A stretch of 64,000 bases of DNA from a virus (IMGVR_UViG_3300011155_000013:18941-82940), one strand, 5' to 3'. Positions 3,993 to 64,000 are shown, counted from the first letter of the stretch. Numbers and translations are program-made. Notes: generated from the sequence alone by a model not told the origin.

Positions 3993-4264
3993 GATGAATT
4001 CCCCTATTCTTTAATGCTTTCTGCAATGTGCTCGCCAATCGGGCACATTGTCGAAGGCACTACGCGAGCGGCCGGCATCCAGGCCGCTCGATTAGTTTCC
4101 TTGCTCCGGTCGATAAGGCCGGTGTGAAGCGCGGGCATCGTTCGGCTTTGGCGCCGGCTTTGGCGGGACTGGCAAAGCTAGCAGGCGAACGACACGCGGG
4201 GCGCAGTAGTGGCGCAGATCGATGGTCGGAGCGTTAGGTTTTTAATGATCCGGCGACCGTATAA

Positions 4265-4279
4265 CTGTAAATACAGGTC
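4265..4279. promoter_or_regulatory. dispersed motif copy (ctgtaaatacaggtc) in the 1-kb non-coding region
   Basis: Seen in sequence. Confidence 0.5.
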
Positions 4280-4911
4280 GCCCAATGCAGTGCAAGCCGT
4301 CGTCTCGATCGTCGGGCATGGCTCCGCCCTGCATGCCCGTAGGCTGCAAAGCGGGGGCGCCATGCTCGCCGTGGCTTTGATCGTCGGGCGTGTCGTCTCT
4401 TGCGCTTTGGTTCCACTATCGGCAATCGGCGCCAGTGTCGCCGAAGGTTCGCCCGAAAGTGGTAGCGCCAGCCCTTGTCAGACAATGGGCGAGACTATCC
4501 GCAACGGCACAAACTGCGCCGTCGTGACTCAATCAAAGCCGCTCGGTCGGAGCGGCAAGCTAGCAGGTTTAAAGAACGGTCAAGGCAAGCGCAAGGCCAG
4601 CCAAGCGGGGCGATGGAGCCAGCCCCGGTGGCCATCAGTAACTGCCTGACCACGGAACAAACTATATACAAGCAAAACGATAGAAACAAGCGTCAAGCAT
4701 GGAAAAGCTAAGAATATAAAAGCATAAGAACATAGCCCCGCCCCCTCTTTTTGGTTATAGAAACCCCATACAGCCCGCCTACCTCCGCGAGCAAAATTTT
4801 TGCAAATTTCCTTTATGGTTATGTTGTTATCACAGTAATTCGCCGATTTTCGCTAAAAGTTGCACAGTCAGGCTTTACAACACTCGCCTCGCTGACTACC
4901 CTCCGAATCTT

Positions 4912-4935
4912 CAAATACAGGTTTACAGGTTCACA
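4912..4935. promoter_or_regulatory. two tandem half-sites (aaatacaggt ttacaggtt), about 30 nt upstream of the HU-like gene
   Basis: Seen in sequence. Confidence 0.5.
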
Positions 4936-4965
4936 GCCTGAATTCACACCAGATCGGAGTCCTCA

Positions 4966-5247
4966 ATGAACTACGCCACCAAAGCCGACCTCGTCGCCGA
5001 CGTAGCCAGCGCCACCGGCCTCACCAAAGCCGCCGCCAAACAAGCAGTCGAAGCCACCCTGTCCGGCATCAGCAAGCTGGCCTTCGAAAAGGGCCACCTC
5101 ACCCTTCGCGGCTTCGGCAAGTTCCGCGCCCGCCGTTACGCAGCTCGCCTGGTCAAGGGAGGCGTCGTGGGCCGCGAAGTGCAAGTACCGGCCCGCACCG
5201 TCCTGACCTACAGCGCCAACCCCGACCAGACCCGCGTCGAGGCATAA
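4966..5247 (+). CDS. HU/IHF-family histone-like DNA-binding protein
   Basis: 93 aa with an HU-like fold signature (LRGFGKF...R...AR). Confidence 0.8.
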   Translation: MNYATKADLVADVASATGLTKAAAKQAVEATLSGISKLAFEKGHLTLRGFGKFRARRYAARLVKGGVVGREVQVPARTVLTYSANPDQTRVEA

Positions 5248-6268: not shown

Positions 6269-6723
6269 CCAATTGGTAGACCCGACGAAAGGATTAATTC
6301 TCGATTTGGACTGAAATAACGGCGTTTACAGCGGACTCAGATATTGACCTGCATGAAAAGTGGACATTTCGCAGTGTGACAAACCACGGGCTCCAGAGCA
6401 TCATCTGCTCCCGCCGATAACCATAATGTCAAAAAGACATCACAAGGCAGCCTTGCGGGCACAGATCTGACTTTCACAAATGGGAATGCAACACAATGGA
6501 AAAGTACCTGATGTTCGGTTTTCTGCCGATTCGCGTCTCCCCAGAAGGGACATGGACAGCGGACACAGGCAGCCGATTGGTTGACCAAATCGCAAATACA
6601 GGTGCCCGCATGGCCCTGCTGTTTATCGACTCCCTGGAACGAGCGTTCGACGTGCACCTGCCGGTGAGCGTGGCGCCGGCCCAGGAGCTGCCAGCAACAC
6701 AGCTGTAAGGAGGCGGGAACGAG

Positions 6724-12288: not shown

Positions 12289-12297
12289 AACTTGGCA

Positions 12298-12321
12298 AGC
12301 AGACCTGTAAATACAGGTCTG
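12298..12321. promoter_or_regulatory. 24-bp perfect palindrome gcagacctgta-aa-tacaggtctgc containing the motif, about 30 nt upstream of the major capsid gene
   Basis: Seen in sequence. Confidence 0.6.
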
Positions 12322-12352
12322 CTAACCCCCAGATATACAGGAAAAAGTCAGT

Positions 12353-13534
12353 ATGAAACCATTCAAACTCGAATACTGGGCCAAGGACGAGAAGGGCGGC
12401 AAAGTCCTGAAGTCGGTCGACGTCACCGTCGAGGCCTACAAGCACGCAGCTGAGAAGGGCATGACCCTGCGTCAGTACGTCAAGCACCTGGCGTCCGACT
12501 GGGACCGCAGCATGGGCGACCCGCTGGACCAGATGTACGCCAACTCCGGCCTGCTCGACGGCCAGAAGTTCGGCATGCCGGCGATGACCCTGCAGGACAT
12601 CGCCAAGGCCCAGCTGGCCGACGGCTTCCGCCGCCCGGACGGCAGCGACAACAGCCTGGGCGCCCGCCTGCTGTACCCGCAGCTGATCCTGGAAACCATG
12701 CAGGCCAACGCCCTGCGTGACGACGGCAGCGACATTCTGGCGATCTGGGAAAGCCTGATCGGGGTCAGCCGCAACATCAACGGCACCAAGGCCGACCAGC
12801 CGATCATCGACACCACCGCACCGGAAGGCAGCCGCAGCGGTCGTATCGCCCAGCTGGCGGAGCCGGAGACCATGATCTCCATCACCACCGGCGACAAGTC
12901 GTACCGCATCCCGACCAACTCGATTGGTCTGATGATCTCCGACGAGGCCATGGCCGCCACCACTATCGACCTGGTTCGTACGGTGATGGAAGCGCAGTCC
13001 CGCGGCGATCGCATCCGCCGCGCCATGGAGCAGTTGAAGTCCATGGTCCAGGGCGACATCGACGCTGGCATCGCCGCTCTGCCGGTGACCAAGATCAGCG
13101 AGTTCGACAGCTCGATCACCACCAACGGTGTGATCACCAAGCGCGCCTTCATCAAGTGGCTGCACAGCAAGCAGAAGATCTGCAACCTGAGCCAGGTGCT
13201 GACCGACATCGACACCGCCATCGACATCGATGACGCCCTGCTGCCGAAGGTCACCGGTACCGACTCGTCCAAGATCGCTGCACCGTGGGGCGGCCTGAAC
13301 CTGGGCATCACCCAGCCGCGCATCGTACCGGTGGACGCTGACGTGTTCGGCGCCGCGCACCTGGTCGGCCTGGACCCGCGCTACGCGATCCAGCGTTTCG
13401 TCAACGTGTCGGCTTCCTACGACGCGATCGAAGAGTACGTGATGCGCAAGGCGACCGGCTTCCGCGTCGACTTCGGCGAGATGTCCACCCGCCTGTACGA
13501 CGAGGCGTGGTCGGTAGTCAGCCTCGAGGCGTAA
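12353..13534 (+). CDS. major capsid protein
   Basis: 393 aa following protease/scaffold and decoration genes. Strong expression context, including a downstream GC hairpin. Confidence 0.65.
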   Translation: MKPFKLEYWAKDEKGGKVLKSVDVTVEAYKHAAEKGMTLRQYVKHLASDWDRSMGDPLDQMYANSGLLDGQKFGMPAMTLQDIAKAQLADGFRRPDGSDNSLGARLLYPQLILETMQANALRDDGSDILAIWESLIGVSRNINGTKADQPIIDTTAPEGSRSGRIAQLAEPETMISITTGDKSYRIPTNSIGLMISDEAMAATTIDLVRTVMEAQSRGDRIRRAMEQLKSMVQGDIDAGIAALPVTKISEFDSSITTNGVITKRAFIKWLHSKQKICNLSQVLTDIDTAIDIDDALLPKVTGTDSSKIAAPWGGLNLGITQPRIVPVDADVFGAAHLVGLDPRYAIQRFVNVSASYDAIEEYVMRKATGFRVDFGEMSTRLYDEAWSVVSLEA

Positions 13535-40608: not shown

Positions 40609-40941
40609 TCATGGCTGACCTCCGTCTGCGTCGTAGATGCACGCAGGGCGGCGGAACTCAATGACCTCGCCGTTCTCCTCCTTCCAGTCCATCGCTGAGC
40701 CGAGGTGGCACTTGTCGGTGCGAACCGCGTAGTGGACCTGGCAGCCGGCAATAACCAGATCACCGACCTGCACGTACCAATTGGTCGATCGTGCGTTGGT
40801 TCGAATGCCCAGTGTCTTCTCATCGCTGTGGACGCCGTGGACTGTGCCGTAGGCAGCTCGGTATTGCCTTCCGTCAGGCGCGAAGAAGAAACAGTCGGTG
40901 GTGATCAGGACCTTGGTTCCTATCTCAAACTGATGACTCAC
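40609..40941 (-). CDS. hypothetical protein (110 aa)
   Basis: ORF with 4-nt overlaps with both neighbours. Confidence 0.45.
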   Translation of the reverse strand: MSHQFEIGTKVLITTDCFFFAPDGRQYRAAYGTVHGVHSDEKTLGIRTNARSTNWYVQVGDLVIAGCQVHYAVRTDKCHLGSAMDWKEENGEVIEFRRPACIYDADGGQP

Positions 40942-41972
40942 ACCGCCACCTCCTTCGCCAACTCGCTGAACAGGTCAGCCAAATCGCTACCTTCCAACTC
41001 GCGGCTGATGCGGGTGCGCAGATCCTCGACTACCGGCTTCTCCGCCTCGTCGTCGACTACGTTCACGCCGGCCACCGAGACGCTGTTGCGAACTGCCAAT
41101 GCGTCCGGGGCGTTCTCCCACACCATCTGCATGAAGTCGGCGACAGCCACGGCCTCGTCCGCAGCGCCAATCACGTCGATGAACTGCACGCCACTCAGGT
41201 CCGGCAGCTCCTGACCGAACATGACTGACGCGAAGCGCTCGTCCTTGGACCAGATGCGGGTTTTGGTGAGATCAATGCTGTCGTCGGTGATCTCCAGCTG
41301 GTAGGAGAACTTGTCGCTGATATCGGCAAACGACGTCGGGTGCGTGTTGCCCAGGATCACCACTCGGCCGTCGAAGTGGGTGGACGGCTTGTGCTCGTGG
41401 CCGAGGAAGATGTAGTCGAACGACTCCAACAGCTTCTGCGCGATTGCCGGCGACAGGTTGAGGGTGTCGTCCTCGGTGGCGAAGGGCTGGTCGTAGTTGC
41501 AATGCAGCATCAAGACGCTGGCCCGGCCGGCGCGCTCACAGGCCGCATGCTCAGCGGCGTCCAGCATTGCCTGCTCGAACAGCTCCTGACTGGCGTGGTG
41601 CGGGACGAAGTAGAGCGGTTCGAAGTTGTCGAAGTAGGGCTCCGACAAGCTGGGCGAGGAGATGATCGCGCAGCCCATTTCCTGGAGCGCGCGGAGGCTT
41701 GTGATGGTCCCTTCGCGGTTGGTCTCGTCGTGGTTGCCGGCCAGCGTCCACATGCAGTTGCTGGCGATCTCGTAACCCTGGACCAAGATCGATTCGTCGT
41801 TGAAGGCGCGGTCGAACAGGTCGCCCAGGCAGATCGGCTTCTCCGCGTCCTCAATGACGTCCCACGCCTGCTTGAACAAGGCGAGGGTCAGGTGCTTGGA
41901 GGACTCGCGGGTGGTATGCGCTGCCCGGCGGGTGCCGAGGTGTGGATCGGTGAAGAGCGTATACGTCGTCAT
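40938..41972 (-). CDS. SbcD/Mre11-like metallophosphoesterase nuclease
   Basis: N-terminal DPHLG motif. The later GNHD and GHEH motifs are typical of the calcineurin-like nuclease family. Confidence 0.8.
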   Translation of the reverse strand: MTTYTLFTDPHLGTRRAAHTTRESSKHLTLALFKQAWDVIEDAEKPICLGDLFDRAFNDESILVQGYEIASNCMWTLAGNHDETNREGTITSLRALQEMGCAIISSPSLSEPYFDNFEPLYFVPHHASQELFEQAMLDAAEHAACERAGRASVLMLHCNYDQPFATEDDTLNLSPAIAQKLLESFDYIFLGHEHKPSTHFDGRVVILGNTHPTSFADISDKFSYQLEITDDSIDLTKTRIWSKDERFASVMFGQELPDLSGVQFIDVIGAADEAVAVADFMQMVWENAPDALAVRNSVSVAGVNVVDDEAEKPVVEDLRTRISRELEGSDLADLFSELAKEVAV

Positions 41973-43406: not shown

Positions 43407-43429
43407 GCTGTATTTACAGCAATACAGGT
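43407..43429. promoter_or_regulatory. ctgtatttacag plus caatacaggtt, upstream of the DNA ligase gene (minus strand)
   Basis: Seen in sequence. Confidence 0.55.
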
Positions 43430-54255: not shown

Positions 54256-55080
54256 TCAGCCTTCGTAGCGGCCGACGGTCTTGAACACCCACGGGCGGAA
54301 CGCCTTGGTGCCTTCGCCGACCTTCTTGCCGACCTGGCACTGGGTCACCACCTGGTCGAGGCGGGCGCCGCGCAGCTTGGTGTAAGCCTGGGCAGCGGCC
54401 CCGGCGAGGCGGGCCTTGGAGGCCGGCGGGATGCTCAGCATGACCATCTGCTGCTCGTACTCGTCGTCGCGGTTGACCAGCGTGGCCATGGCCTCGAGGT
54501 ATTCCTTGATGTCGAGCGGGGACTCTTCACCACCGTAGCCTTCGTCGGCCCAGTCGTGCAGCTTCTCGGCCGCGCAGCTGCCGTCGGTGAACGTCGCGCC
54601 GGTGGCGTCGTAGGAGTAGTAGGACTCGGCGTCCTGGTCGGTGCTCTGGCGAACAACGTACAGGCGGCGGGTGCTGTGGATCACGCAGTCGAACTCGGTG
54701 CCCAGCTCAGCCTCTTCGCTGCCCAGCAGGAACTTGCCTTCGTGCATCTTGATGCGGTCGAAGGACATACCGGTCAGGTCCAGGCCTTCGAAGCCGGCGG
54801 CTGCCTGGTCTGCGGAGAACTGTGCCATTGCGTTGGTGCGCTGCTCGGTGACCGAAACGGCCTTCTGTTCCGCGAGTTCAGCGACGACTACACCCTGGAC
54901 GGCTTCAACACCTTGCTCGGTCATCGGCTCGCTGGAAGCGACAGCCTCGGAAGCTGCCGCGGAGACGACCTCCGGCTCAGCGACAGCGGCGGTTGCGGTG
55001 GCTTCCACACCGGCAGTGTTCAGGGTTTCAGCTTCGTCTTGGGTCTTGGTTACTTGGGGGCGTGCGAGTGCCATGGTCAT
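54256..55080 (-). CDS. hypothetical acidic protein (274 aa); speculative ssDNA-binding or recombination mediator
   Basis: Low-complexity Ala/Glu/Val N-terminus. No family recognised. Sits in the replication module, which lacks an obvious SSB. Confidence 0.4.
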   Translation of the reverse strand: MTMALARPQVTKTQDEAETLNTAGVEATATAAVAEPEVVSAAASEAVASSEPMTEQGVEAVQGVVVAELAEQKAVSVTEQRTNAMAQFSADQAAAGFEGLDLTGMSFDRIKMHEGKFLLGSEEAELGTEFDCVIHSTRRLYVVRQSTDQDAESYYSYDATGATFTDGSCAAEKLHDWADEGYGGEESPLDIKEYLEAMATLVNRDDEYEQQMVMLSIPPASKARLAGAAAQAYTKLRGARLDQVVTQCQVGKKVGEGTKAFRPWVFKTVGRYEG

Positions 55081-55111
55081 TTTCCTTTTAGATCGTCAGT
55101 TGTCCGCATCG

Positions 55112-55156
55112 CTGTATCTACAGAAATACAGGAATACGGTCGTGGCTTTATACAGG
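55112..55156. promoter_or_regulatory. cluster of four sites or half-sites (ctgtatctacag, aaatacagg, aatacgg, ttatacagg) upstream of the 274-aa gene
   Basis: Seen in sequence. Confidence 0.55.
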
Positions 55157-55191
55157 CCGATTCCCAGGCCGTCAACAATGAGGCGGAGGCC

Positions 55192-56826
55192 TCAGTGGAG
55201 CAGCTCGTGCAGCAGATCTTTCCGATCCCGCACGATCTGGTTGTTTTCCTCCTCGTTTTTGAGGAGGTTCTTGAAGTTCCTGTCGAGTAAGGTTCCCATC
55301 ACTCGGAGGAAATAGACGTTCACGATGTTCTCCTGCCCCTTTCGGTCGGTGCGGGCAATGGCCTGCTTGGCGTCCTTGGGGGAGGTCGGACATTCGTAGA
55401 AGATGCTGTGGGAGGCACACTGCAGGTTCAGGCCGGCGCCGCCGGCGATCCAGTTGATGACGAATATCCTGCAGCTGGGGTCCGTCTTGAATTTCTCGAC
55501 CTGGCCGCGATCCGAACCGCCGTACAGGACGGCTGGGTTCCAGCGTGAGTAGCGCTTGGCCAGGAAGTCGATCGCCCGCTTGTAGTAGGCGAAGATGATG
55601 ACCTTGTGCTGGTCCGGGTTGATCGAGTCGAGCAGCGTGTCGCATGCCTTGGCGAGGTCGTTGTCCATGCTGACGCTTTGATCGAACTCATCAGGGCAGC
55701 TGATCAACTGCAGGGCCAGGTGGCGCAGCGCGCTCTGGTTGTCCGGCATCAGGACCTTGTCACCGAGGATGGCGAATCGGTTGTTGATGATCTTCTTGTA
55801 GAGCTTCTTGTGAGCCCCTGTCAGGTGCACTTTGATCTGCGTGATCAGCGGGTCAGGCATCTGGATCACATCCCGCTTCTGGACCCGCCGTGCGTTCTTG
55901 TAGAGCGCCTGGTAGACCTTCTCGGTGTTGTGATACGCGACGATTTTCTTGACCTTGACGTCCTTCTTGCCGTTGTTCACGGAGAAGGTCTGGATCTCAC
56001 AGTGCTGCCGCTCGAAGGCGGCTTTGTTGCCATACGCACCAGGGTTGATCAGCCGGATGATGCCGTAGACGTCCTCAAGGTGGGTCGGCACTGGCGTGCC
56101 GGTCATCAGGTAGACCGCGACCTCATCGCCCAGCTGCGCGCTCATCTCGTACACCGAGGTCGAGAGAATCGAATCGACGCCGCAAAGCGCATGCGCCTCG
56201 TCGAAGAAGAGCACGTTGTAGCCTGACCGCTTGAGCTTGAACTGAAACGGGTTACGCGCCCGGCCACGCTTGTTGATCTCCCTGCCGTCTTTGGTGAACG
56301 GCTTGGCGGTTCGGTCGTACGGTTCGCCTTCCCCCTTGAAATAAGGGCTGCCATCACGCTGGTACCAGAGGTTGTGGCCGATCGCCTTGGTAGGGGAGCG
56401 GTCATTCAGCACCCGGTAGATGTCGTAGGACATGATCAGGATGTCCGGCCAACCGGTGGCATCCCACTGATCGATCAGCTTCTTCTTCTGCGTGGCCGGC
56501 ACGTCCAGATGGGCGACTTTCAGGTGGTTGTCGATCCCGACGAAGAAGTCCTTCAGCTCCTCGTAGAACTGGACGATCAGCTTCGGTGGCATCGAGAAGA
56601 CGACCTTGTTTCCCAAGGACGCCATCAACACTGCGTGAATTTGCGCGGGGAAGGTCTTCCCGACGCCGGGGTCCCCTGCATCAAGGAAGCGCATGTTCCG
56701 GGCGTAGAGCTTCACCTGCTCCATTTGGTGTGGCATCGGCCAGAAGGGCAGCTGCACCTTATCGAACCAGACGGGGTAGTTGGTCACCCCGCTGGCGAGC
56801 ATCAGATCGCTAAGGCTTGATGCCAT
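55192..56826 (-). CDS. SNF2-family DEAH-box helicase
   Basis: Walker A DPGVGKT, DEAH box (FFDEAHAL), motif VI (QAIARTDRKGQ). Confidence 0.8.
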   Translation of the reverse strand: MASSLSDLMLASGVTNYPVWFDKVQLPFWPMPHQMEQVKLYARNMRFLDAGDPGVGKTFPAQIHAVLMASLGNKVVFSMPPKLIVQFYEELKDFFVGIDNHLKVAHLDVPATQKKKLIDQWDATGWPDILIMSYDIYRVLNDRSPTKAIGHNLWYQRDGSPYFKGEGEPYDRTAKPFTKDGREINKRGRARNPFQFKLKRSGYNVLFFDEAHALCGVDSILSTSVYEMSAQLGDEVAVYLMTGTPVPTHLEDVYGIIRLINPGAYGNKAAFERQHCEIQTFSVNNGKKDVKVKKIVAYHNTEKVYQALYKNARRVQKRDVIQMPDPLITQIKVHLTGAHKKLYKKIINNRFAILGDKVLMPDNQSALRHLALQLISCPDEFDQSVSMDNDLAKACDTLLDSINPDQHKVIIFAYYKRAIDFLAKRYSRWNPAVLYGGSDRGQVEKFKTDPSCRIFVINWIAGGAGLNLQCASHSIFYECPTSPKDAKQAIARTDRKGQENIVNVYFLRVMGTLLDRNFKNLLKNEEENNQIVRDRKDLLHELLH

Positions 56827-57037
56827 TGACCTTTCTCCGGGTCATGAGGTGGTCGTAGTCACCGCAGCAGAACTCATCGCAGAACCTGAGTCCGGCGCCG
56901 AGCGGCTCTTCGCAGTAGTAGCAAGAGCCTTTCGCCTGCAGGCGTGGCTCTGCCTCGGCCCGCGCAGCGGCGATAAAGCGCTCGAGGTTCTCAGCTGCTA
57001 CGTCGGCTGCTTCATCCACTGGGTCGGCATTACGCAT
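56810..57037 (-). CDS. small Cys-rich protein (75 aa, zinc-ribbon-like)
   Basis: CYYC...C...CC cluster. Confidence 0.35.
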   Translation of the reverse strand: MRNADPVDEAADVAAENLERFIAAARAEAEPRLQAKGSCYYCEEPLGAGLRFCDEFCCGDYDHLMTRRKVNGIKP

Positions 57038-57081
57038 TTTTCTTGTCTCCTTCGGGGCCGAAGCCCCTACTTCTGCCGCGC

Positions 57082-59943
57082 TCAGACTTCCGCTGGCTCG
57101 GTTTCATCTTGGAAGTTGGTTAGCGGCGTGCCTTTGCTGCGCACGGCCGACAGGTTGATGACGTGGACGTCGACGCCCTCCTTGTGGGGGTGTTGTTCAC
57201 GCCGGTCGAAGTACACTTCGCCCTCCAGCAGGCTGGTCATCTGCCGCGCTTCCTTGATCACCGGGATGTCCCCGAGCGTCTTGGCGTAGCGGCAGTAGCG
57301 GGGCAGGCAGGACGAGATCACCAGGAACAAGCTGTTTCCTTGACGCCAGTAGTGGTCACCAGCTCGCAGGCCTGTCTGGCGGTCCTCTGGATCCTCCGCC
57401 ATCTGGTTCAGCGTGCTGAGGACTCGGTCGACCTCGGAGATGGACTTCTCCTTCTCCATCTCGCCGGCATTGCTGGACAGGAAGCCTGAGAGGGCGTTGA
57501 ACAGTTCGTCGACGTGCTCACGACCCTTGACCTCGTAGTCGTCCATCGTCTTGGCGAGAAGGGCGAGCCCGGTAAGCGCTGTCTGGTAGCCCCATTTGGG
57601 GCGCGGGCCGATGCTGTCCGGCACCAAATGAGCAGTGCTGTCGAACACCTCCAGGACCTGCTCCGGGGCCATATTTACAGCTTTGGTGACCAGCGCCTTG
57701 GCCATTCTCATCAGCGCGTGGCGGCGCTTTGCCGCTTCCGCGTAATGGAACCTGTACTGGTCGTTCATCAGCGCCTTCGACGTGAGCTTCACCTCTACGG
57801 TCCGGCTGCGCAGGGATGGCACGGTGGCCGTCTGCTCGCTGGTGTAGACGATCGGTGAACTGACGCGGTCGGCGGAGATCCCGACCCCCTTCTCGCTGAG
57901 CTTTCCGCGCGGGACCGGAGCCCGGTTCCATGCAGCTTTCAGGATGCCGAGGATCTTGCCGTACATGCCGACGCCGATGTTCGCCGGGTTGACCTCCTCA
58001 ACCAGGCGGGGCACGGTGCTGCTGCTGGATACAAACCGGACCAGCGGATAGATCGTCGAAACCTCGACGTTCATGAAGTCCGCCTTGCCGTAGTCCATGC
58101 CGTTCAGAAAGCTCGCCAGGATTGCCAGCGAGGTCTTGCCAGCGCTGGCGTTCCCGCTGATGTTCAGTAGCGGGAACTGCACTTCGTTGAACTGGATGTG
58201 CTCGCGGAAGTGGCAGGCGACGTGCCAGCCGATCACCGCGCCAATACTGTGAGCCTCGTTCACCTTGGTCAGGTGGAAGATCGCCTCTTCGAGATCGGTG
58301 TCATCCTCGTAGGGGTAGTCTTCAGACAGCAGCTTCGGCGATTGCTTGGGGTCGCCGTTGTAGTAGTACCGGCTGACTTTACCTGCAGAGGTGCAGGAGC
58401 CAGCGTCCTCGACATAGTGGGCGACCACCTTGTCTTTGCGCCGGTCAAGCAGCACCCCGCACAGTTGGGTGCGAACCATCTTCTCGATTTCCTTGCCTTG
58501 CTGTTCAGCTTTGCGCCGGCCCAGTTCCTGGACGGCACGCAGCAGGTTCTGGATGTCTGCGTCGGAGGCGGTGACTGTCGCGCTGTTGCGCCCACTGATC
58601 GCGCTGATCAACGATCGCTTTGATGACCACGCTTCCTCCGGCATCTCGTGATCCTCGACCGTCTGGCCAAGGTCATCGATCAGCCTTCCGATGTAGGCCC
58701 TGCGCGGCGACTCCTTGAACAACACCTGATCGGCGGAGACGTCCTCGAGGTCATACACCTCGGTATGCGGCCAGAAGGTGAAGGTGGTCAGCTTGCGCCC
58801 GCTGCCCTCGTTCTCCAGGAAGTAGCCGATGGTGGCTGCCCTGATGCTCGTCCGAGGGTCAAAGTCGTCCTCATCGTCGCTGCCCCTCTGCTCTGGGTTC
58901 TCAACGTCGCCGCGGCAGATGATGCAGTGTCCGCAGGGCTTGCCGATCGTTGCGATCAGTGGTCCTGGGAGGAACTTCAGCCGGCCAGTGAAGGCCCGGT
59001 TGAGCATCCCTTCCACATGCTTGCGGCGCTCCTTTGCCGAGGGCCGGGCGCTGCTCTCCACGTTGGTCACGAACGGCTCTACGATGTCGGCGGTGTACTC
59101 GTCGGCGTCGTCTCGCTCGTAGCGCGCTGCCACATACGCGGCGACCTGCATCGCAGCCTGGTTCCAGTTCGACTCTGGTGAGTCGCCCTCGGTAATCAGC
59201 TTCTGGATACAGCCTGGAACCTCTGTCAGGGCCTGCAGCTTTTCCTTCGGCACTACCACGGACGACTTCATCGCCTTAACTCGCTTGGCCGCCCGGATGC
59301 GCGCCGCTTTGAACAGCGCCTCGGCCTTGGGGAAGATCACCGAATCAGACGGCTCGTTCAGCGCCATCGACGGGCGCGGCTGGGCTACCAGCGTGGCGTA
59401 CTGCTCGCTGTCCATGTCGACCAGCTCGTCGTAGGTCACTCCGACCTTGAACGTGCCGGTGGGGCGCTGGATGTTCTCGCACCGCCACATCCGGCCGCGG
59501 CCCGCCGAGTAGACGACCATGTCGAGGTGCTCGACTTTCATCGTCTCCGCGACTTCGCGGTAGATCAGCGGGAGAGCCTTCACCGGCGCCTTCAGTCCGA
59601 AGACCCGGGCCGGCACCGTAACGTGCACGCCTTTCTTCCCGGACAGCCAGCAATGAACGAAGGACTTGTCGATGTCCAACTTCTTCGTCAGGTGGGTCAG
59701 GACAGTGCGGACCGACTCGAGGACGGCATCCAGGTCAGGACCGTCGAAGTCGAAATACATAGGTCCCATGTACTTGACGTGGTCGAGCGGGTCTTCGCCG
59801 TTCTCAGCGAAGTTTTCCGGATCCTGGTCGACCTTCAGGACAGTCATGAAGGCTGGCGGCTGCTCTAGTCCGGAGAGCTGCCGCTCGTCGTACAGGCGCC
59901 AGGCTTCCTTCGCGTTCGGCTTGAACTGCAGGAAATGGTACAT
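57082..59943 (-). CDS. bifunctional primase-polymerase (AEP) plus SF3/D5-like helicase
   Basis: AEP motifs (FDFDGPD; SGKKGVHV). C-terminal Walker A GNASAGKTSLA. 953 aa. Confidence 0.75.
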   Translation of the reverse strand: MYHFLQFKPNAKEAWRLYDERQLSGLEQPPAFMTVLKVDQDPENFAENGEDPLDHVKYMGPMYFDFDGPDLDAVLESVRTVLTHLTKKLDIDKSFVHCWLSGKKGVHVTVPARVFGLKAPVKALPLIYREVAETMKVEHLDMVVYSAGRGRMWRCENIQRPTGTFKVGVTYDELVDMDSEQYATLVAQPRPSMALNEPSDSVIFPKAEALFKAARIRAAKRVKAMKSSVVVPKEKLQALTEVPGCIQKLITEGDSPESNWNQAAMQVAAYVAARYERDDADEYTADIVEPFVTNVESSARPSAKERRKHVEGMLNRAFTGRLKFLPGPLIATIGKPCGHCIICRGDVENPEQRGSDDEDDFDPRTSIRAATIGYFLENEGSGRKLTTFTFWPHTEVYDLEDVSADQVLFKESPRRAYIGRLIDDLGQTVEDHEMPEEAWSSKRSLISAISGRNSATVTASDADIQNLLRAVQELGRRKAEQQGKEIEKMVRTQLCGVLLDRRKDKVVAHYVEDAGSCTSAGKVSRYYYNGDPKQSPKLLSEDYPYEDDTDLEEAIFHLTKVNEAHSIGAVIGWHVACHFREHIQFNEVQFPLLNISGNASAGKTSLAILASFLNGMDYGKADFMNVEVSTIYPLVRFVSSSSTVPRLVEEVNPANIGVGMYGKILGILKAAWNRAPVPRGKLSEKGVGISADRVSSPIVYTSEQTATVPSLRSRTVEVKLTSKALMNDQYRFHYAEAAKRRHALMRMAKALVTKAVNMAPEQVLEVFDSTAHLVPDSIGPRPKWGYQTALTGLALLAKTMDDYEVKGREHVDELFNALSGFLSSNAGEMEKEKSISEVDRVLSTLNQMAEDPEDRQTGLRAGDHYWRQGNSLFLVISSCLPRYCRYAKTLGDIPVIKEARQMTSLLEGEVYFDRREQHPHKEGVDVHVINLSAVRSKGTPLTNFQDETEPAEV

Positions 59944-59950
59944 GGCACCC

Positions 59951-60229
59951 TCACGCCATCAGCGTTTCAGACTTTCTGGTGATGTAGCAGGAGCCCTTGC
60001 GCTGATAGACCTCGGCGTCGGAGTCAGCCAGGCCACGGCGTTGCAGGCTCTGGCGGAAGAGGGTGGTGTTGTAGACCCGGCCGAGCTTCAGCGACTTGCC
60101 CACTTCCAGGGCGTTGTAGTGCTGAGCGAGCTCGACGTAGTCGATCCTTTTTACCGGGGCGGGGGCGTCTGTTTCTGATACTTGTTGAATCTGCATGGGC
60201 CTCTCCCGAGTTTCTGATTTCTGGGTCAC
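59951..60229 (-). CDS. hypothetical protein (92 aa)
   Basis: ORF only. Confidence 0.35.
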   Translation of the reverse strand: MTQKSETRERPMQIQQVSETDAPAPVKRIDYVELAQHYNALEVGKSLKLGRVYNTTLFRQSLQRRGLADSDAEVYQRKGSCYITRKSETLMA

Positions 60230-61533
60230 GCGACGTACTTGCCCTTGTTGAGCAGCAGTTCGTGACTCGGGCGGCTGAACGCCACATACACGAGTCGCTG
60301 CCGCTCAGCGCGGATGTTGTTCTTGAGGATGTTGTTCAGGTCGACGAAAGCTCGCCGGAAGGTGCTGCCTTGTGAGCGGTGCACCGTGATGCAGTAGCAG
60401 TAGCGGATGGACGCAAACAGGTCCTTGAAGTCGTGGTACTTCGCCCAGAACATGCGTGCTTCCTGGGGGTGCTTCTTGGCCATGGACGCGAGGTGGTTCA
60501 GTCGGTCCCAGTAACGATCCGTTTCCCGGTCGTCGAGGACGTGGGCGAACACCTGGCCGATGTCGGCGTGAATCGGGTTCAGGACCAGCATCAGCGTCCG
60601 GTAGCTGTCTCCGGTCTCCTCGTCCTCGATCGACGACTCGGTGATCCGGTGGACGATGCACTCCTCGTCGGTGCTGAGTAGCACCGTCTCGCCGTCTGTG
60701 ATTGGTGCACCGGTGACGACTCGTTCGCCTTCCACGAACCGCGGCGCGCCTCTGCCGAACAGCTTCTGGCGGATAGCAGAGTTGATCTCGTCGACCCGGG
60801 CATTGGACCAGGCCAGAACACGCTGCTCATCGAGATCGGTGTCCTTGTCGAACGCCTTCACCACTTCCTTGAGGAAGTCAGCTGACTTGATCACCTCGAC
60901 GCCGTTGCCCTGGATCGCCGGCGAGAAAAAGGGCTTGTTGTTGGCCATCGCCGTGCGCAGCAGGCCGCTGAGCGTGAGGATGTTGCTGTCGGCGGCCTGT
61001 CGTTCCACCTGGGTCAGGCGGACCGTGTCGAAGACCTTGAACGCCAGCGACTCCTTTTCCTTCACCGGCGGCAGCTGCATGTCGTCGCCCATGAGCAGCA
61101 GCTTGCAGTTGTGCTCTTTGGCGTCCGGCAGCAGGTAGTCGAAGAGGACGCGCTTGCCGAGCATCGAGGCCTCGTCCACCACCACAACGTCGAAGATCGG
61201 GAACACGCCGCGGCCCAGCCGGTGGGCGTACTTGTTCTCTTCGGACGGGAGCAGGGCCAGCCCCAACGCGCTGTGCAGGGTCTGGAAGGCGACGTTATTC
61301 AGCGTCAGGCCGTACCGTTTCGCCGACTTCTCAAGCTGTTTGACGGCTTTGTTGGTCGGGGCGGTGAACAGGACCTTGAGGCCTGCTTTGATCAGCTGGG
61401 CGGCTATGTCCATGACGCAGGTGGTTTTTCCTGTGCCACCTTCTCCGATGATGGTCAGGCCTGGCAGGTCTTTTTCTAGGAAGCCATCTACCGCTCGGCG
61501 AATGGCAGCCTTCTGGTCGTTGTTGAATTCCAT
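60226..61533 (-). CDS. Dda/RecD-like SF1B DNA helicase
   Basis: Walker A GEGGTGKTT. Walker B VVVDEASM. C-terminal SF1 motifs (ITVHRSQGST). Confidence 0.8.
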   Translation of the reverse strand: MEFNNDQKAAIRRAVDGFLEKDLPGLTIIGEGGTGKTTCVMDIAAQLIKAGLKVLFTAPTNKAVKQLEKSAKRYGLTLNNVAFQTLHSALGLALLPSEENKYAHRLGRGVFPIFDVVVVDEASMLGKRVLFDYLLPDAKEHNCKLLLMGDDMQLPPVKEKESLAFKVFDTVRLTQVERQAADSNILTLSGLLRTAMANNKPFFSPAIQGNGVEVIKSADFLKEVVKAFDKDTDLDEQRVLAWSNARVDEINSAIRQKLFGRGAPRFVEGERVVTGAPITDGETVLLSTDEECIVHRITESSIEDEETGDSYRTLMLVLNPIHADIGQVFAHVLDDRETDRYWDRLNHLASMAKKHPQEARMFWAKYHDFKDLFASIRYCYCITVHRSQGSTFRRAFVDLNNILKNNIRAERQRLVYVAFSRPSHELLLNKGKYVA

Positions 61534-61552
61534 GTGAGTTCCTTATGTAATG

Positions 61553-61575
61553 CTGTATACCTGTAAATACAGGTT
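61553..61575. promoter_or_regulatory. ctgtatac plus cctgtaaatacaggtt, upstream of the Dda-like helicase gene
   Basis: Seen in sequence. Confidence 0.55.
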
Positions 61576-61655
61576 ATTGGGCAGTACGTTTTCTTTTTAT
61601 GAAGTTCTAGCGCAAGCGGCGATGCTACCGGCTGCGTTCGAGGGCAGTCAACGGG

Positions 61656-61994
61656 TCATTTGACGACGCGGAGGGAAGGTCTTTGCTTGACGCGGGTTAC
61701 GCTGTTTTTGCGGGTTTCGGCCGCGACACACAGAGGGGCCACCGGCTGTGATCCGGCCCTGACCGCCTCCATCATCACCTCGGCGAGGGACAGGTTGTAG
61801 CGGGCAGCGGTGTTGATCATCACGGACAGATGAACATGGCCGATCCGTTCAAGGGTGGCTTCGGTCACGACGGACCTGGCAACCTCGAGATGGCGGTAGA
61901 TGTTGTCACGCAGGGCGTGTTCATCCACGTCCAGCTTGCATTTGCGGCTGAACTGCAGGGTGTACTGAACGACCTTCTCGTCGATGTCAGCCAT
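61656..61994 (-). CDS. hypothetical protein (112 aa)
   Basis: ORF 61656..62063. The internal ATG at 61994 is preferred because the upstream part is low-complexity. Confidence 0.35.
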   Translation of the reverse strand: MADIDEKVVQYTLQFSRKCKLDVDEHALRDNIYRHLEVARSVVTEATLERIGHVHLSVMINTAARYNLSLAEVMMEAVRAGSQPVAPLCVAAETRKNSVTRVKQRPSLRVVK

Positions 61995-62295
61995 AGAGTT
62001 GGACGACGTTCGCTTTCTCTTGGGCTCTGGGGAGCTCGGTTTTAGGGAAGACTGTGATGGCACTGATCAGTCGGCTGCGGCGCTGCGCGTCGGTCTCACC
62101 GTTGATAACTGCAGTTGCCCAGTCTGAGTACAGTGCATAGAGCACTTGGTCGGAGGTTGCGTCAACGACTTCCTCGCAGACTACGCTGTCCAGCTCCGAA
62201 AGGAACATTGTGATTGCGAAGTCCCTGCTGTCCGCAGTGCCTCTGCTGGAATGCTCAATCGATAGCCTGCGAAGCCTCGCCAGGCGATTGCTCAT
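61987..62295 (-). CDS. hypothetical protein (102 aa)
   Basis: ORF only. Confidence 0.35.
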   Translation of the reverse strand: MSNRLARLRRLSIEHSSRGTADSRDFAITMFLSELDSVVCEEVVDATSDQVLYALYSDWATAVINGETDAQRRSRLISAITVFPKTELPRAQEKANVVQLYG

Positions 62296-62304
62296 CAGAA
62301 CTCC

Positions 62305-62511
62305 TTACTCGACAGGTTTCGAGTATTTGGGGATGGTGTATTCGGTCAGTGCCTCGATCATCAGGTCCTTGGCGGATTTGCGGCTGAACGCTGCGATCTG
62401 CTTGAGCTTAGCGTGCAGCTCCTCCGGCATGTCCATGGTGAACTTCTTTTCTTGTCGGGCGAGGAGGTAGGAAGCCTGGAGGGACGATCCTACTGGATGG
62501 GCTTTAGGCAT
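62305..62511 (-). CDS. ribbon-helix-helix (Arc/CopG-like) DNA-binding protein
   Basis: 68 aa with an RHH pattern (KKFTMDMPEELHAKLKQIAAFSRKSAKDLMIEAL). Confidence 0.5.
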   Translation of the reverse strand: MPKAHPVGSSLQASYLLARQEKKFTMDMPEELHAKLKQIAAFSRKSAKDLMIEALTEYTIPKYSKPVE

Positions 62512-62559
62512 GGGGCAAAATCCTTTATGTCAATTAACGAGTAATTGAATCCTATTTTG

Positions 62560-62581
62560 GACCTGTATTGCTGTCAATACA
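62560..62581. promoter_or_regulatory. acctgtattg-ctgtc-aatacag inverted pair, upstream of the RHH gene
   Basis: Seen in sequence. Nearly identical to the reverse complement of the ligase-upstream copy. Confidence 0.55.
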
Positions 62582-62622
62582 GATTCAAGTATATAAGAAT
62601 TAAATTACGGTTAATCGGGGCT

Positions 62623-63261
62623 TCATGCCCAGGTTCTTGCGACTTCCCTCACGAACTCCCCCTTGGCGTTGCGTGCCAAGGTCACCTTCGCTTCTGCAGG
62701 TATGGCCACGATCTTGGCTGCGCCGGCTTCCGCTGCCTCCTCGTTTGCGTCCGACACTGCTCTGACAAGCTCAGGCGCTGAACGCCCTTCAATAGTCGCC
62801 AGCTCCTCTGTGGTGAACGGAGTGCCGCGGAGGTCGCCGGCCTTGTCGAGGACCTCTTGCTTCAGCCGCAGGCGATCAGCGCCTTTGGCAATAACCGCCA
62901 ATCGAAGGCCGTGCGGATCGTCAGGGCCTCCGGCAACGCCGAGGATCTCGACATCGGAGGGTGAAGGGCTGAGCAGGTATGATCGGTCGACGCTGCCTGG
63001 TGGGCAGGTCAGGTAAAGGGGGATGATTCGGTTTGTGGCCTGCAAGGGCGTGAGGTTGCTGTCGTACACCGCCTCGAGCAGCGGTCTAGGCAGGCCGAGG
63101 CCGGCTGGGCCGCTGGAATACAGCTTCTCTATCCTTGCCAGGAAGTCCAGGTAGTTGTCACGGTCTGCTCCGGCCCAGTGAAGGCGGGCGGGGCTTTTGT
63201 GAGTGTGCAGTGCTATGTAGGTGCCGCGTCTCGGAAGCGAGAGGGCAGTGAGGTACAGCAT
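62623..63261 (-). CDS. hypothetical protein (212 aa)
   Basis: ORF only. Confidence 0.4.
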   Translation of the reverse strand: MLYLTALSLPRRGTYIALHTHKSPARLHWAGADRDNYLDFLARIEKLYSSGPAGLGLPRPLLEAVYDSNLTPLQATNRIIPLYLTCPPGSVDRSYLLSPSPSDVEILGVAGGPDDPHGLRLAVIAKGADRLRLKQEVLDKAGDLRGTPFTTEELATIEGRSAPELVRAVSDANEEAAEAGAAKIVAIPAEAKVTLARNAKGEFVREVARTWA

Positions 63262-63395
63262 GACGACTCCTTGCGCGCAGGTTTGCTTGCCACTAGAATC
63301 GAAGGCGTGAATTCCTTCTTGCGCCGGCCCTTAAAGCCGGCGTTTCTTTTTCTGGTGGGCAAGCCTGCTAGCAAGGTGTCGCTCCGTCAAGCAGG

Positions 63396-63659
63396 TCAGT
63401 GTTTAGCCGCTTCCTCGGCGGTGTTGATCAGCTCGACAACCAGCGGCTTCGCTTTGTAGATCTTCTTGTTGTGTTGGCGCTCAAAGACAACTGCCCCCCC
63501 TTGGTTCAGGAGGCAGAGGTGTCGGGATGCGTTTGCCTGCGAGATTTCGAGACGGGCTGCCACGTCATTTACGCAAAGACCATTTTCCGTGTGCAGCAAC
63601 TGAACGATGTGCAGGCGGGTAGGGTGGGACAAACTGTTGAGCAATTCGGCAGACGACAT
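63396..63659 (-). CDS. ArsR/SmtB-family winged-HTH transcriptional regulator
   Basis: 87 aa with LSHPTRLHIVQLL...VNDVAARLEISQANASRHLCLL. Confidence 0.65.
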   Translation of the reverse strand: MSSAELLNSLSHPTRLHIVQLLHTENGLCVNDVAARLEISQANASRHLCLLNQGGAVVFERQHNKKIYKAKPLVVELINTAEEAAKH

Positions 63660-63691
63660 TCTTTTTCCTATAAGGTTCTGTGTTGGCTGGT

Positions 63692-63733
63692 GAATACAGT
63701 AATACAGGTCCGTAAATATGTAAATACAGGTCT
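63692..63733. promoter_or_regulatory. cluster of four sites (gaatacag, aatacaggtc, ccgtaaatatg, tgtaaatacaggtct) upstream of the ArsR-family gene and about 130 bp upstream of lepA
   Basis: Seen in sequence. Confidence 0.55.
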
Positions 63734-63867
63734 CCCCCAGTATTTGCTTTCACGCGAGTAGCTTTCCGCCGATTCCTGTATATTGCTCCGCTGCCCGCCG
63801 GATCGCTCCAAACGGGGCACTTTCAGAAATGCGTACATAACGGCGTACATAGTTCAGGTTTTAGCGG

Positions 63868-64000
63868 ATGTCCGAAGCAAAAAAGCTCAGTGATCTCAGT
63901 CACATACGGAACTTCTCCATCATCGCGCACATCGATCATGGCAAGTCGACGCTGGCCGATCGGTTCATTCAGATGTGCGGTGGCCTGACGGAACGTGAGA
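63868..64000 (+). CDS. lepA: elongation factor 4 (LepA), N-terminal fragment (host chromosomal gene)
   Basis: [35 protein letters not shown] matches the LepA N-terminal G-domain. Confidence 0.85.

Follow-up and report, generated by a model that had tools for sequence, protein, structure and literature searches.

A dispersed motif and a candidate ribbon-helix-helix repressor in a lepA-integrated temperate relative of Pseudomonas phages PMBT3 and Lana

The right end of a temperate phage element raises the question of which of its small DNA-binding proteins reads a short motif that recurs through its genome, and what that reading achieves. The element was found in a viral stretch of 64,000 nucleotides (IMGVR_UViG_3300011155_000013:18941-82940; the window, below, is this whole stretch), and its right end is the last 2.2 kb of the phage-like DNA, where all genes lie on the minus strand. 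A sequence-only reading had singled out two genes there, one for a ribbon-helix-helix (RHH) protein and one for an ArsR-like protein, and had proposed that one of the two is a master regulator of lysogeny or lytic timing that acts through the motif. From sequence comparisons we conclude that the motif is very probably the operator of a phage regulator linked to a five-gene cassette at this end. With less assurance, we lean towards the RHH protein as an autoregulated, genome-wide silencing or lysogeny repressor of the lepA-integrated prophage, with the motif as its operator.

The repeats and the clustering that the sequence-only reading had noticed are real and far above chance. In the window, AATACAGG has 14 matches against 0.58 expected, a number reached in none of 100 shuffles, and TACAGGT has 23 against 3.0 expected. 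CTGTAT-N8-ATACAG occurs in five exact copies (23694, 43408, 55112, 61553 and 62563), and when spacings of 1–15 are considered for the CTGTAT/ATACAG pair, N8 is enriched, and otherwise solely the abutting arrangement, N0. The full site is a composite of 20–24 bp in which CTGTA and TACAG pentamers follow one another at steps of 7–8 bp, some in direct and others in inverted orientation. The outer two form an inverted pair, CTGTA-N10-TACAG, and enclose a middle pentamer that points either right (CTGTA-n3-CTGTA-n2-TACAG) or, in the mirror form, left (CTGTA-n2-TACAG-n3-TACAG).

Related contigs were ranked by primase identity into 99%, 88%, 75%, 68%, 56% and ~50% lineages, those other than the window's own being sampled as partial loci of about 60 kb per lineage. 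Pooling 54 unique sites over four lineages gives the consensus cCTGTAtAcCTGTAAATACAGGT; the right unit is near-invariant, the middle one is conserved in 48 of the 54 sites and the left one in 22, with 37 sites in the right-right-left orientation and 11 in the mirror form. A weight-matrix scan recovers about 18 sites in the window, and all but one are intergenic or at gene boundaries, in a sequence of which 10.4% is non-coding; the exception, at 6582, falls inside a weakly scored call for a 70-aa open reading frame (ORF) at 6496-6708. The near-invariant unit, AAATACAGGT, is on the plus strand in 12 of 14 exact copies, whatever the direction of the neighboring gene (late plus-strand and early minus-strand arms), and it is gene-proximal at late genes and gene-distal at early genes.

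Where these sites lie relative to genes and promoter-like elements is best seen from the features themselves:

62305..62511, minus strand: gene for the 68-aa ribbon-helix-helix protein, the proposed motif reader; beta-strand KKFTMDM at residues 22-28
62563-62582: composite site CTGTATTGCTGTCAATACAG, placed 51 nt ahead of the RHH ATG, the proposed autoregulatory operator
62549..62577, minus strand: P_RHH, sigma-70-like promoter TTGACA-17-TAGGAT, 10/12 matches; arrangement conserved in the 88% and 75% lineages
63396..63659, minus strand: gene for the ArsR/SmtB-family winged-helix protein, 87 aa, first gene beside the attachment site
63688..63729: pair of neighboring composites ahead of the ArsR-like gene, at 63688-63707 and 63710-63729
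63776..63781: lone half-site CCTGTAT in the interval from the ArsR-like gene to lepA, kept in the 88% lineage
60226-61533, minus strand: Dda/RecD-type helicase gene, ATG at 61533
61553-61572: composite site CTGTA-tac-CTGTA-aa-TACAG, CTGTATACCTGTAAATACAG, 19 nt before the Dda-type helicase ATG; conserved in related prophages
61622..61651, minus strand: P_Dda, sigma-70-like promoter TTGACT-18-TAGCAT, conserved throughout the five temperate lineages
43408..43427: composite site CTGTA-tt-TACAG-caa-TACAG in front of the ligase gene, 25 nt ahead of its ATG
1860, 4257, 4901, 6582, 8887, 12297, 23694, 30506, 33627, 49091, 52573 and 55112: other window sites from the weight-matrix scan

The -35 hexamer of P_RHH forms the center of site 62563-62582, which is thus centered at about -30. 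Upstream of the ArsR-like gene, the pentamers of the two adjacent sites include three exact TACAG copies and a single CCGTA variant, and both hexamers of a candidate promoter, P_ArsR (TTTACA-17-TACTGT, weaker than P_RHH; -35 at 63724..63719, -10 at 63701..63696), are made of motif units, with the sites centered at about -30 and -8. The TTTACA-17-TACTGT arrangement recurs at a late gene (23757). Sites therefore overlap core promoter elements of both regulator genes, in line with the operators that had been proposed at the regulators' own promoters. The claim that multi-copy arrays precede both genes fits the ArsR-like gene, where the four sites counted earlier correspond to the two adjacent composites, and has to be amended for the RHH gene, which has a single composite. 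The near-identity of that composite to the ligase-upstream site holds up, its reverse complement differing from 43408-43427 at 1 of 20 positions. The helicase site is centered at about +52 from the predicted P_Dda start, in the transcribed leader, and for six further sites, which end 0–25 nt ahead of a start codon, no promoter-like element lies close by. Of the window sites, three have their center near -30 relative to a promoter-like element and one is the leader site at +52; the others occupy intergenic gaps.

The site upstream of a 393-aa gene (12353-13534) sits inside a longer perfect palindrome, GCAGACCTGTAAATACAGGTCTGC (12289-12324). As RNA this palindrome would form an 11-bp stem (-19.2 kcal/mol, z=-5.6), and it may double as an RNA hairpin.

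The motif also travels with a particular set of genes. The cassette consists, in order, of the genes for the ArsR-like protein, p212, the RHH protein, p102 and p112. It is present in the 99–56% lineages and absent from the ~50% PMBT3/Lana-type contigs, and in the window's own lineage it occurs together with the integrase in both integrated and excised forms. Its other three members are:

62623..63261, minus strand: p212, cassette protein without a family match
61987..62295, minus strand: p102, acidic, poorly conserved, directly after the RHH gene
61656..61994, minus strand: p112, the most conserved cassette protein (59–92% identity across lineages), predicted all-helical

Per ~60 kb sampled, the 88%, 75% and 68% lineages have 16, 14 and 12 motif sites, respectively. 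PMBT3, Lana and six other contigs of virulent type gave none, although their replication modules are syntenic, and the motif is absent from the host flanks. This confinement to cassette-carrying lineages upholds the earlier idea that the motif regulon is tied to the regulators and to lysogeny. Because the sites front helicase, ligase and polymerase genes that the virulent relatives express motif-free, the motif appears to be an added layer of repression and not a lytic promoter element.

The most informative comparison comes from the 56% lineage (L021, L055 and L074), which is likewise located at lepA. It has about eight sites of the same architecture built on (C/G)CGTA/TACG(G/C), for example CCGTAttgCCGTAaaTACGG and CCGTAaaTACGGcaa, and the window-type matrix finds one match there, itself a CCGTA variant. 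Relative to the window, the two candidate regulators compare as follows:

88% lineage (L013), motif CTGTA: RHH protein 87% identical, strand 7/7; ArsR-like protein 89%, recognition helix 9/9
75% lineage (L029), motif CTGTA: RHH protein 59%, strand 6/7; ArsR-like protein 45%, recognition helix 7/9
68% lineage (L018), motif CTGTA: RHH protein 53%, strand 7/7; ArsR-like protein 47%, recognition helix 5/9
68% lineage (L019), motif CTGTA: RHH protein 57%, strand 7/7; ArsR-like protein 45%, recognition helix 6/9
56% lineage (L021), motif CCGTA: RHH protein 41%, strand 3/7 (KKLTVLL); ArsR-like protein 26%, recognition helix 5/9

The RHH strand reads KKFT[M/L]DM across the CTGTA lineages and KKLTVLL where the motif is CCGTA. 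[KR]KFTMDM occurs together with CTGTA sites at three more loci (L090, L093 and L094), and a fourth locus with CTGTA sites, L092, is known from its ArsR-like gene on a short contig alone. The strand of the RHH protein thus changes with the motif, whereas the recognition helix of the ArsR-like protein matches equally (5/9) in L018 and L021, and this favors the RHH protein as the reader. The earlier proposal had left the choice between the two proteins open; they prove to be separable, with the strand of one following the motif and the recognition helix of the other failing to do so.

RHH proteins such as Arc, MetJ, CopG and omega read DNA through the beta-strand. The assignment of the 68-aa protein to this group draws on several comparisons. 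A profile built from ten homologs and compared with solved structures gives RHH proteins as 9 of 11 matches (including omega, CopG-family proteins, AmrZ and antitoxins), in alignments that span the strand, helix A and helix B. The match range is E 9e-4 to 0.4, with ParD best at 9e-4 and omega at 0.07. In PHROGs the protein falls in PHROG 582, "Arc-like repressor" (E=4.3e-6), and one homolog matches Pfam Antitox_RHH (2.4e-6). By these profiles, in which the strand-helix-helix is detectable, the protein is a member of the RHH superfamily, and the original RHH call is sustained despite a sub-threshold Pfam score. The heptads bound by omega are 7 bp long and in mixed orientation; MetJ recognizes 8-bp boxes in tandem. 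The architecture of the sites, with steps of 7–8 bp and mixed orientation, is consistent with binding by several RHH dimers and appears to be a poor fit for a single winged-helix dimer. A tblastn search with the RHH protein and with p112 found no homologs in the annotated phage collection searched, and an RHH-based scan of viral contigs returned the same lineages and nothing further.

The ArsR-like call is firm as well. The 87-aa protein scores 39.7 bits against Pfam HTH_20 (cut-off 27) and 35.4 bits against HTH_5 (PF01022; cut-off 22), which places it, as the sequence-only reading had it, in a family of DNA-binding proteins. In a search of the Protein Data Bank (PDB) its closest solved relatives are PagR, HlyU, Rv0081 and BigR, with CadC and SmtB matched too, and the alignment to PagR extends across the whole winged-helix domain (E=1.5e-6). 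There is no conserved metal motif (CXC or alpha-5): the sequence is GLCVNDV, with a single Cys, which is Ser in L019. If it senses anything, the protein would by its sequence group with non-metal members such as PagR and HlyU, from which (as from BigR and Rv0081) it differs in being phage-borne and encoded next to attP. A palindrome search of 61500-63930 for a separate ArsR operator gave nothing convincing. Because its recognition helix does not follow the motif, the gene would be better described as a target under heavy guard than as the source of the motif reader. Its product may be a second-tier, decision or early regulator, or may act at the int/attP/lepA-proximal region.

One further element lies between the ArsR-like gene and p212:

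63321..63353, plus strand: GC-rich hairpin with a T-run, terminator-like, antisense to the cassette

It is kept in all lineages, and in the 68% lineage A- and T-runs on its two sides make it bidirectional. The hairpin may insulate the ArsR-like gene or may end an antisense transcript across p212.

How, then, do other explanations of the motif compare? The ArsR-like protein might itself be the reader and the immunity repressor, bound as a dimer to CTGTAT-N8-ATACAG and regulating itself through the double site, with the RHH protein merely local. Several features speak for it: it is a confident DNA-binding protein; the densest motif cluster stands upstream of its gene; and that gene, beside attP, divergent from the integrase and followed by the conserved hairpin, is placed like an independently expressed immunity gene. 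It is also the most diverged cassette protein between lineages, as is typical of immunity determinants, and has changed in the CCGTA lineage too, and a natural variant without the RHH gene (L046, described below) retains the ArsR-like gene and the sites. We nevertheless consider this arrangement unlikely, because the recognition helix varies among lineages with the same motif (SQANASRH, MQSNISHH, LQSNISRH, SQATASRQ) and matches to the same degree, 5/9, in a same-motif and a changed-motif lineage. In addition, outer half-site centers 15 bp apart and a middle pentamer that can point either way would be unsuited to one winged-helix dimer, to judge from known ArsR-family operators, and such a reader would leave the middle pentamer unaccounted for, although it is the better conserved (48 of 54 sites, against 22 for the left half-site, whose weak conservation also counts against a reader of the outer repeat). 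It is slightly less probable still that the reader is another cassette protein (p212, p112 or p102), a protein encoded beyond the window, or a host factor. The conservation of p112, the lack of an assignable function for p112 and p212, and the precedent of SPbeta, in which the reader of a comparable repeat, MrpR, has a recombinase-like fold (PMC10516654), would allow it. However, p212, p102 and p112 showed no DNA-binding signature, and the ~20 kb of the element to the left of the window has no recorded DNA-binding Pfam domain save the integrase. A host factor is disfavored by the sister phage, which switched the motif at the same integration site, by the absence of the motif from the host flanks, and by the lack of a LexA-type box in the window.

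Least probable of all, and in our estimation very improbable, is that the motif works as an RNA hairpin (in processing, stability or translation) or as a phage promoter or activator site for lytic genes. Many sites are able to form hairpins, some of them strong, such as the palindrome at 12289-12324; many lie just upstream of ribosome-binding sites; and the motif read in the early-gene direction holds a -35-like TTTACA. Yet the hairpin register varies from site to site, sites 8887 and 52573 fold no better than shuffled sequence, and what is conserved is the motif sequence and not the pairing. Rfam returned no known RNA family at gathering thresholds. The six sites that end 0–25 nt before a start codon leave no space for a promoter downstream of an activator site, and the virulent relatives express the same genes motif-free.

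A number of more specific candidates were tried and rejected. The HU/IHF-like protein (4966-5247) occurs in the motif-less phage Lana too, and a DksA-like zinc-finger protein is common to the motif-less PMBT3 and Lana. The half-sites resemble those of the host LexA/SOS box, but CTGT-N8-ACAG has 0 matches in the window, and the motif spacings equal CTGT-N4-ACAG and CTGT-N12-ACAG. The site of P2 Ogr/Delta-type late activators is TGT-N12-ACA. The outer repeat fits this, yet most sites are too near start codons for a position at -55, and no Ogr-type protein was found. A partition centromere with an RHH centromere-binding protein lacks a ParA or ParM partner, and the element is integrated. A type II toxin–antitoxin pair lacks a recognizable toxin, p102 having no toxin family match in Pfam or PHROGs; the RHH protein has a short tail, of about 8 residues past helix B; and a local operator cannot account for ~18 dispersed sites. 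Finally, the sites do not mark deletion or recombination junctions, since the junction of a mini-island (L003) is inside the Dda gene, away from sites.

Several points weigh against the RHH protein as reader and silencer: (i) The Pfam RHH score of the window protein alone is below the cut-offs. (ii) The co-variation amounts to a single specificity switch, across which the ArsR-like protein diverged too (26%), so that these sequences make the latter a less likely reader. (iii) The strand is usually the most conserved part of RHH proteins, and its invariance would for that reason be weaker evidence. (iv) In the 68% lineage, the RHH promoter has merely a degenerate site. (v) The plus-strand bias of the near-invariant unit (12/14) is not explained by a simple symmetric-repressor model. 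(vi) The reader of the SPbeta repeated element had an unexpected fold (PMC10516654), and by analogy p212 or p112 could be the reader here.

With these points in mind, the mechanism that we propose for the RHH protein is the following. We infer that it would bind each site as adjacent, cooperative dimers, one per 7–8-bp unit and thus two or three units per site, in the manner of omega, MetJ and Arc. It would repress its own promoter through the site that contains the -35 hexamer, shut the ArsR-like promoter through the two sites over the -35 and -10, and block one late promoter likewise. At the remaining sites, which lie in leaders or in gaps 0–60 nt before start codons, the bound protein could act as a roadblock to elongation or to re-initiation. 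The outcome would be lysogenic silencing and superinfection immunity, and the CCGTA/TACGG sister lineage would be heteroimmune. A wider form of the proposal, which we offer as possible but on balance doubtful, would make the RHH protein a stoperator-type silencer acting through two to three adjacent 8-bp units at ~20–25 sites. Gain and loss of the cassette, integrase and sites would then separate temperate from PMBT3/Lana-type phages, the cassette would survive in remnants as a lepA-side immunity island, and the strand bias would come from direction-dependent roadblocking.

The element that carries this system is temperate and related to two virulent Pseudomonas phages, PMBT3 and Lana. Its replication genes, among them those for primase, helicases, polymerase and ligase, are in synteny with those of the Pseudomonas siphoviruses PMBT3, Lana and UAntarctica (81–88 kb), at ~50% protein identity. 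PMBT3 has been described as virulent and as lacking lysogeny genes, with no integrase, repressor or antirepressor (PMC8421299). In contigs with an identical ArsR-like protein, the element is inserted at the 5' end of host lepA, and a 410-aa tyrosine integrase lies at its opposite end, adjoining mucD. The statement that no CI/Cro pair or integrase is present is thus correct inside the window and does not extend to the element, whose integrase lies beyond the window edge. The excised form is represented by contig L009, in which the integrase and the ArsR-like gene are divergent across attP; comparison of L009 with the window shows that attP holds a copy of the lepA 5' end and that window positions 63650-63923 are phage DNA, with 1 SNP between the two. 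The boundary with the host is as follows:

63868..63923, plus strand: phage-supplied lepA 5' end, start codon at 63868, with the 11-bp att core TTCTCCATCAT at 63913-63923; the prophage right end lies here

The phage supplies roughly the first 18 lepA codons of the lysogen, with a 19-residue stretch in place of the host's shorter N-terminus, and the entire upstream region of lepA is phage DNA, motif cluster included. From this layout, the phage regulators could affect the host lepA operon. Source names indicate Stutzerimonas (Pseudomonas) stutzeri as the host.

In a lambda-type switch, divergent repressor and cro genes flank multi-part operators that they share, and the repressor has an S24 self-cleavage domain. 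The layout at this end does not resemble that of lambda-type CI and Cro: the ArsR-like and RHH genes have the same direction, p212 lies between them, and most sites are in leaders and gaps and not in promoters. No S24 or CI-type domain was found among the window proteins scanned.

Natural variants and remnants add to the picture of the cassette. In L046 (JACCDZ011080644.1, 438-678), an in-frame deletion leaves just 14 C-terminal residues of the RHH protein, fused behind the p212 N-terminus, so that the DNA-binding part of the RHH protein is lost. The ArsR-like gene, p102, p112, and the helicase promoter and leader site are kept. Such a form could represent either a mutant turned virulent or a prophage in decay. 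Several Stutzerimonas/Pseudomonas genomes have remnant islands between lepA and mucD that hold the ArsR-p212-RHH-(p102)-p112 cassette and sites with no phage body; two of these (L003/L004) are ~7 kb long and have the integrase, and two others (L093/L094) are ~4 kb long and lack it. Such retention perhaps fits an immunity function, as far as gene content can tell. One metagenome, 3300035491, contains both an 88%-lineage phage (L014/L058/L066, CTGTA) and a 56%-lineage phage (L021/L055/L074, CCGTA), the contig of the latter ending in a lepA fragment. By their motifs, the two are a candidate heteroimmune pair.

For p212, p102 and p112, Pfam and PHROGs gave no family match. The structure model of p112 (pLDDT 65) is a generic helical bundle with no significant fold match, and that of p212 (pLDDT 55) is too low in confidence to interpret, which makes its structural matches meaningless. 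A megablast search of 55000-64000 against phages and two scans of genome contigs returned nothing.

Elsewhere in the window, a 213-aa protein (1016-1657) has weak Bro-N/anti-repressor matches (Pfam E=1e-3, PHROG E=1.7e-3), and a degenerate motif site (1860-1879) lies upstream of its small operon. On these matches the protein is a possible antirepressor, with a bearing on induction. A 970-bp non-coding gap (3993-4965) separates divergent gene blocks and has two of the motif sites in it (4257 and 4901); farther left, at 880-1000, the sequence is AT-rich and has (TA)n runs. This gap could be a control region or an origin. ARAGORN predicts a 95-nt tRNA-Ile on the plus strand (41281-41375) within a well-scoring minus-strand ORF (40938-41972), and this call is probably a false positive.

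Master repressors with dispersed operators are well documented in few phage groups, namely the cluster A mycobacteriophages and SPbeta. The Streptomyces phage phiC31 offers another such repressor. In cluster A, one site for the L5 gp71-type repressor occurs more than 20 times per genome, at promoters and in short intergenic spaces, and the repressor is thought to block both initiation and elongation, with prophage silencing and immunity as the result (PMC9283540, PMC6550527). The present element shares with these stoperators a single motif at promoters and in many intergenic gaps, with ~18 sites that are nearly all non-coding. The differences are in the site and in the protein. The cluster A site is 13 bp long, asymmetric and bound by a monomer with a helix-turn-helix (HTH) and a second domain, whereas the site described here is a 20–24-bp composite with inverted symmetry. 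The orientation of cluster A sites follows transcription, whereas here the plus strand is used in 12/14 copies across both arms. Scans of the cassette proteins and of other small window proteins found no gp71-type homolog, and the Pfam annotations of the flanking loci show none either. In SPbeta, the intergenic repeats called SPBRE were first noticed in silico and later shown by ChAP-seq to be sites of the master lysogeny repressor MrpR (YopR) (PMC10516654). With its tyrosine-recombinase-like fold, ~10 sites that are all in promoter regions, Gram-positive host and arbitrium link, that system is unlike the one considered here.

The RHH repressors omega (of pSM19035), MetJ, Arc and Mnt (of P22), and ParD bind short units at 7–11-bp steps, direct as well as inverted, as cooperative adjacent dimers, and autoregulation is common among them; Mnt and Arc take part in the control of P22 lysogeny. 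The known RHH repressors act at one or a few promoters, in contrast to the ~18 or more sites across a phage genome of 70–80 kb seen here, and the similarity of the 68-aa protein to them is marginal. If the RHH protein is the reader, it would add a Gram-negative version of the dispersed-operator repressor, with a different DNA-binding fold and a multi-unit operator. In rewriting the lepA start and upstream region, the prophage could also couple phage regulation to the host operon that begins with lepA. The lineages form a comparative set, in which virulent relatives without cassette or sites stand beside a sister lineage with a one-base operator change and a matching strand change, and which bears on the evolution of immunity specificity, on shifts of a phage backbone between temperate and virulent lifestyles, and on the engineering of virulent derivatives for Pseudomonas and Stutzerimonas.

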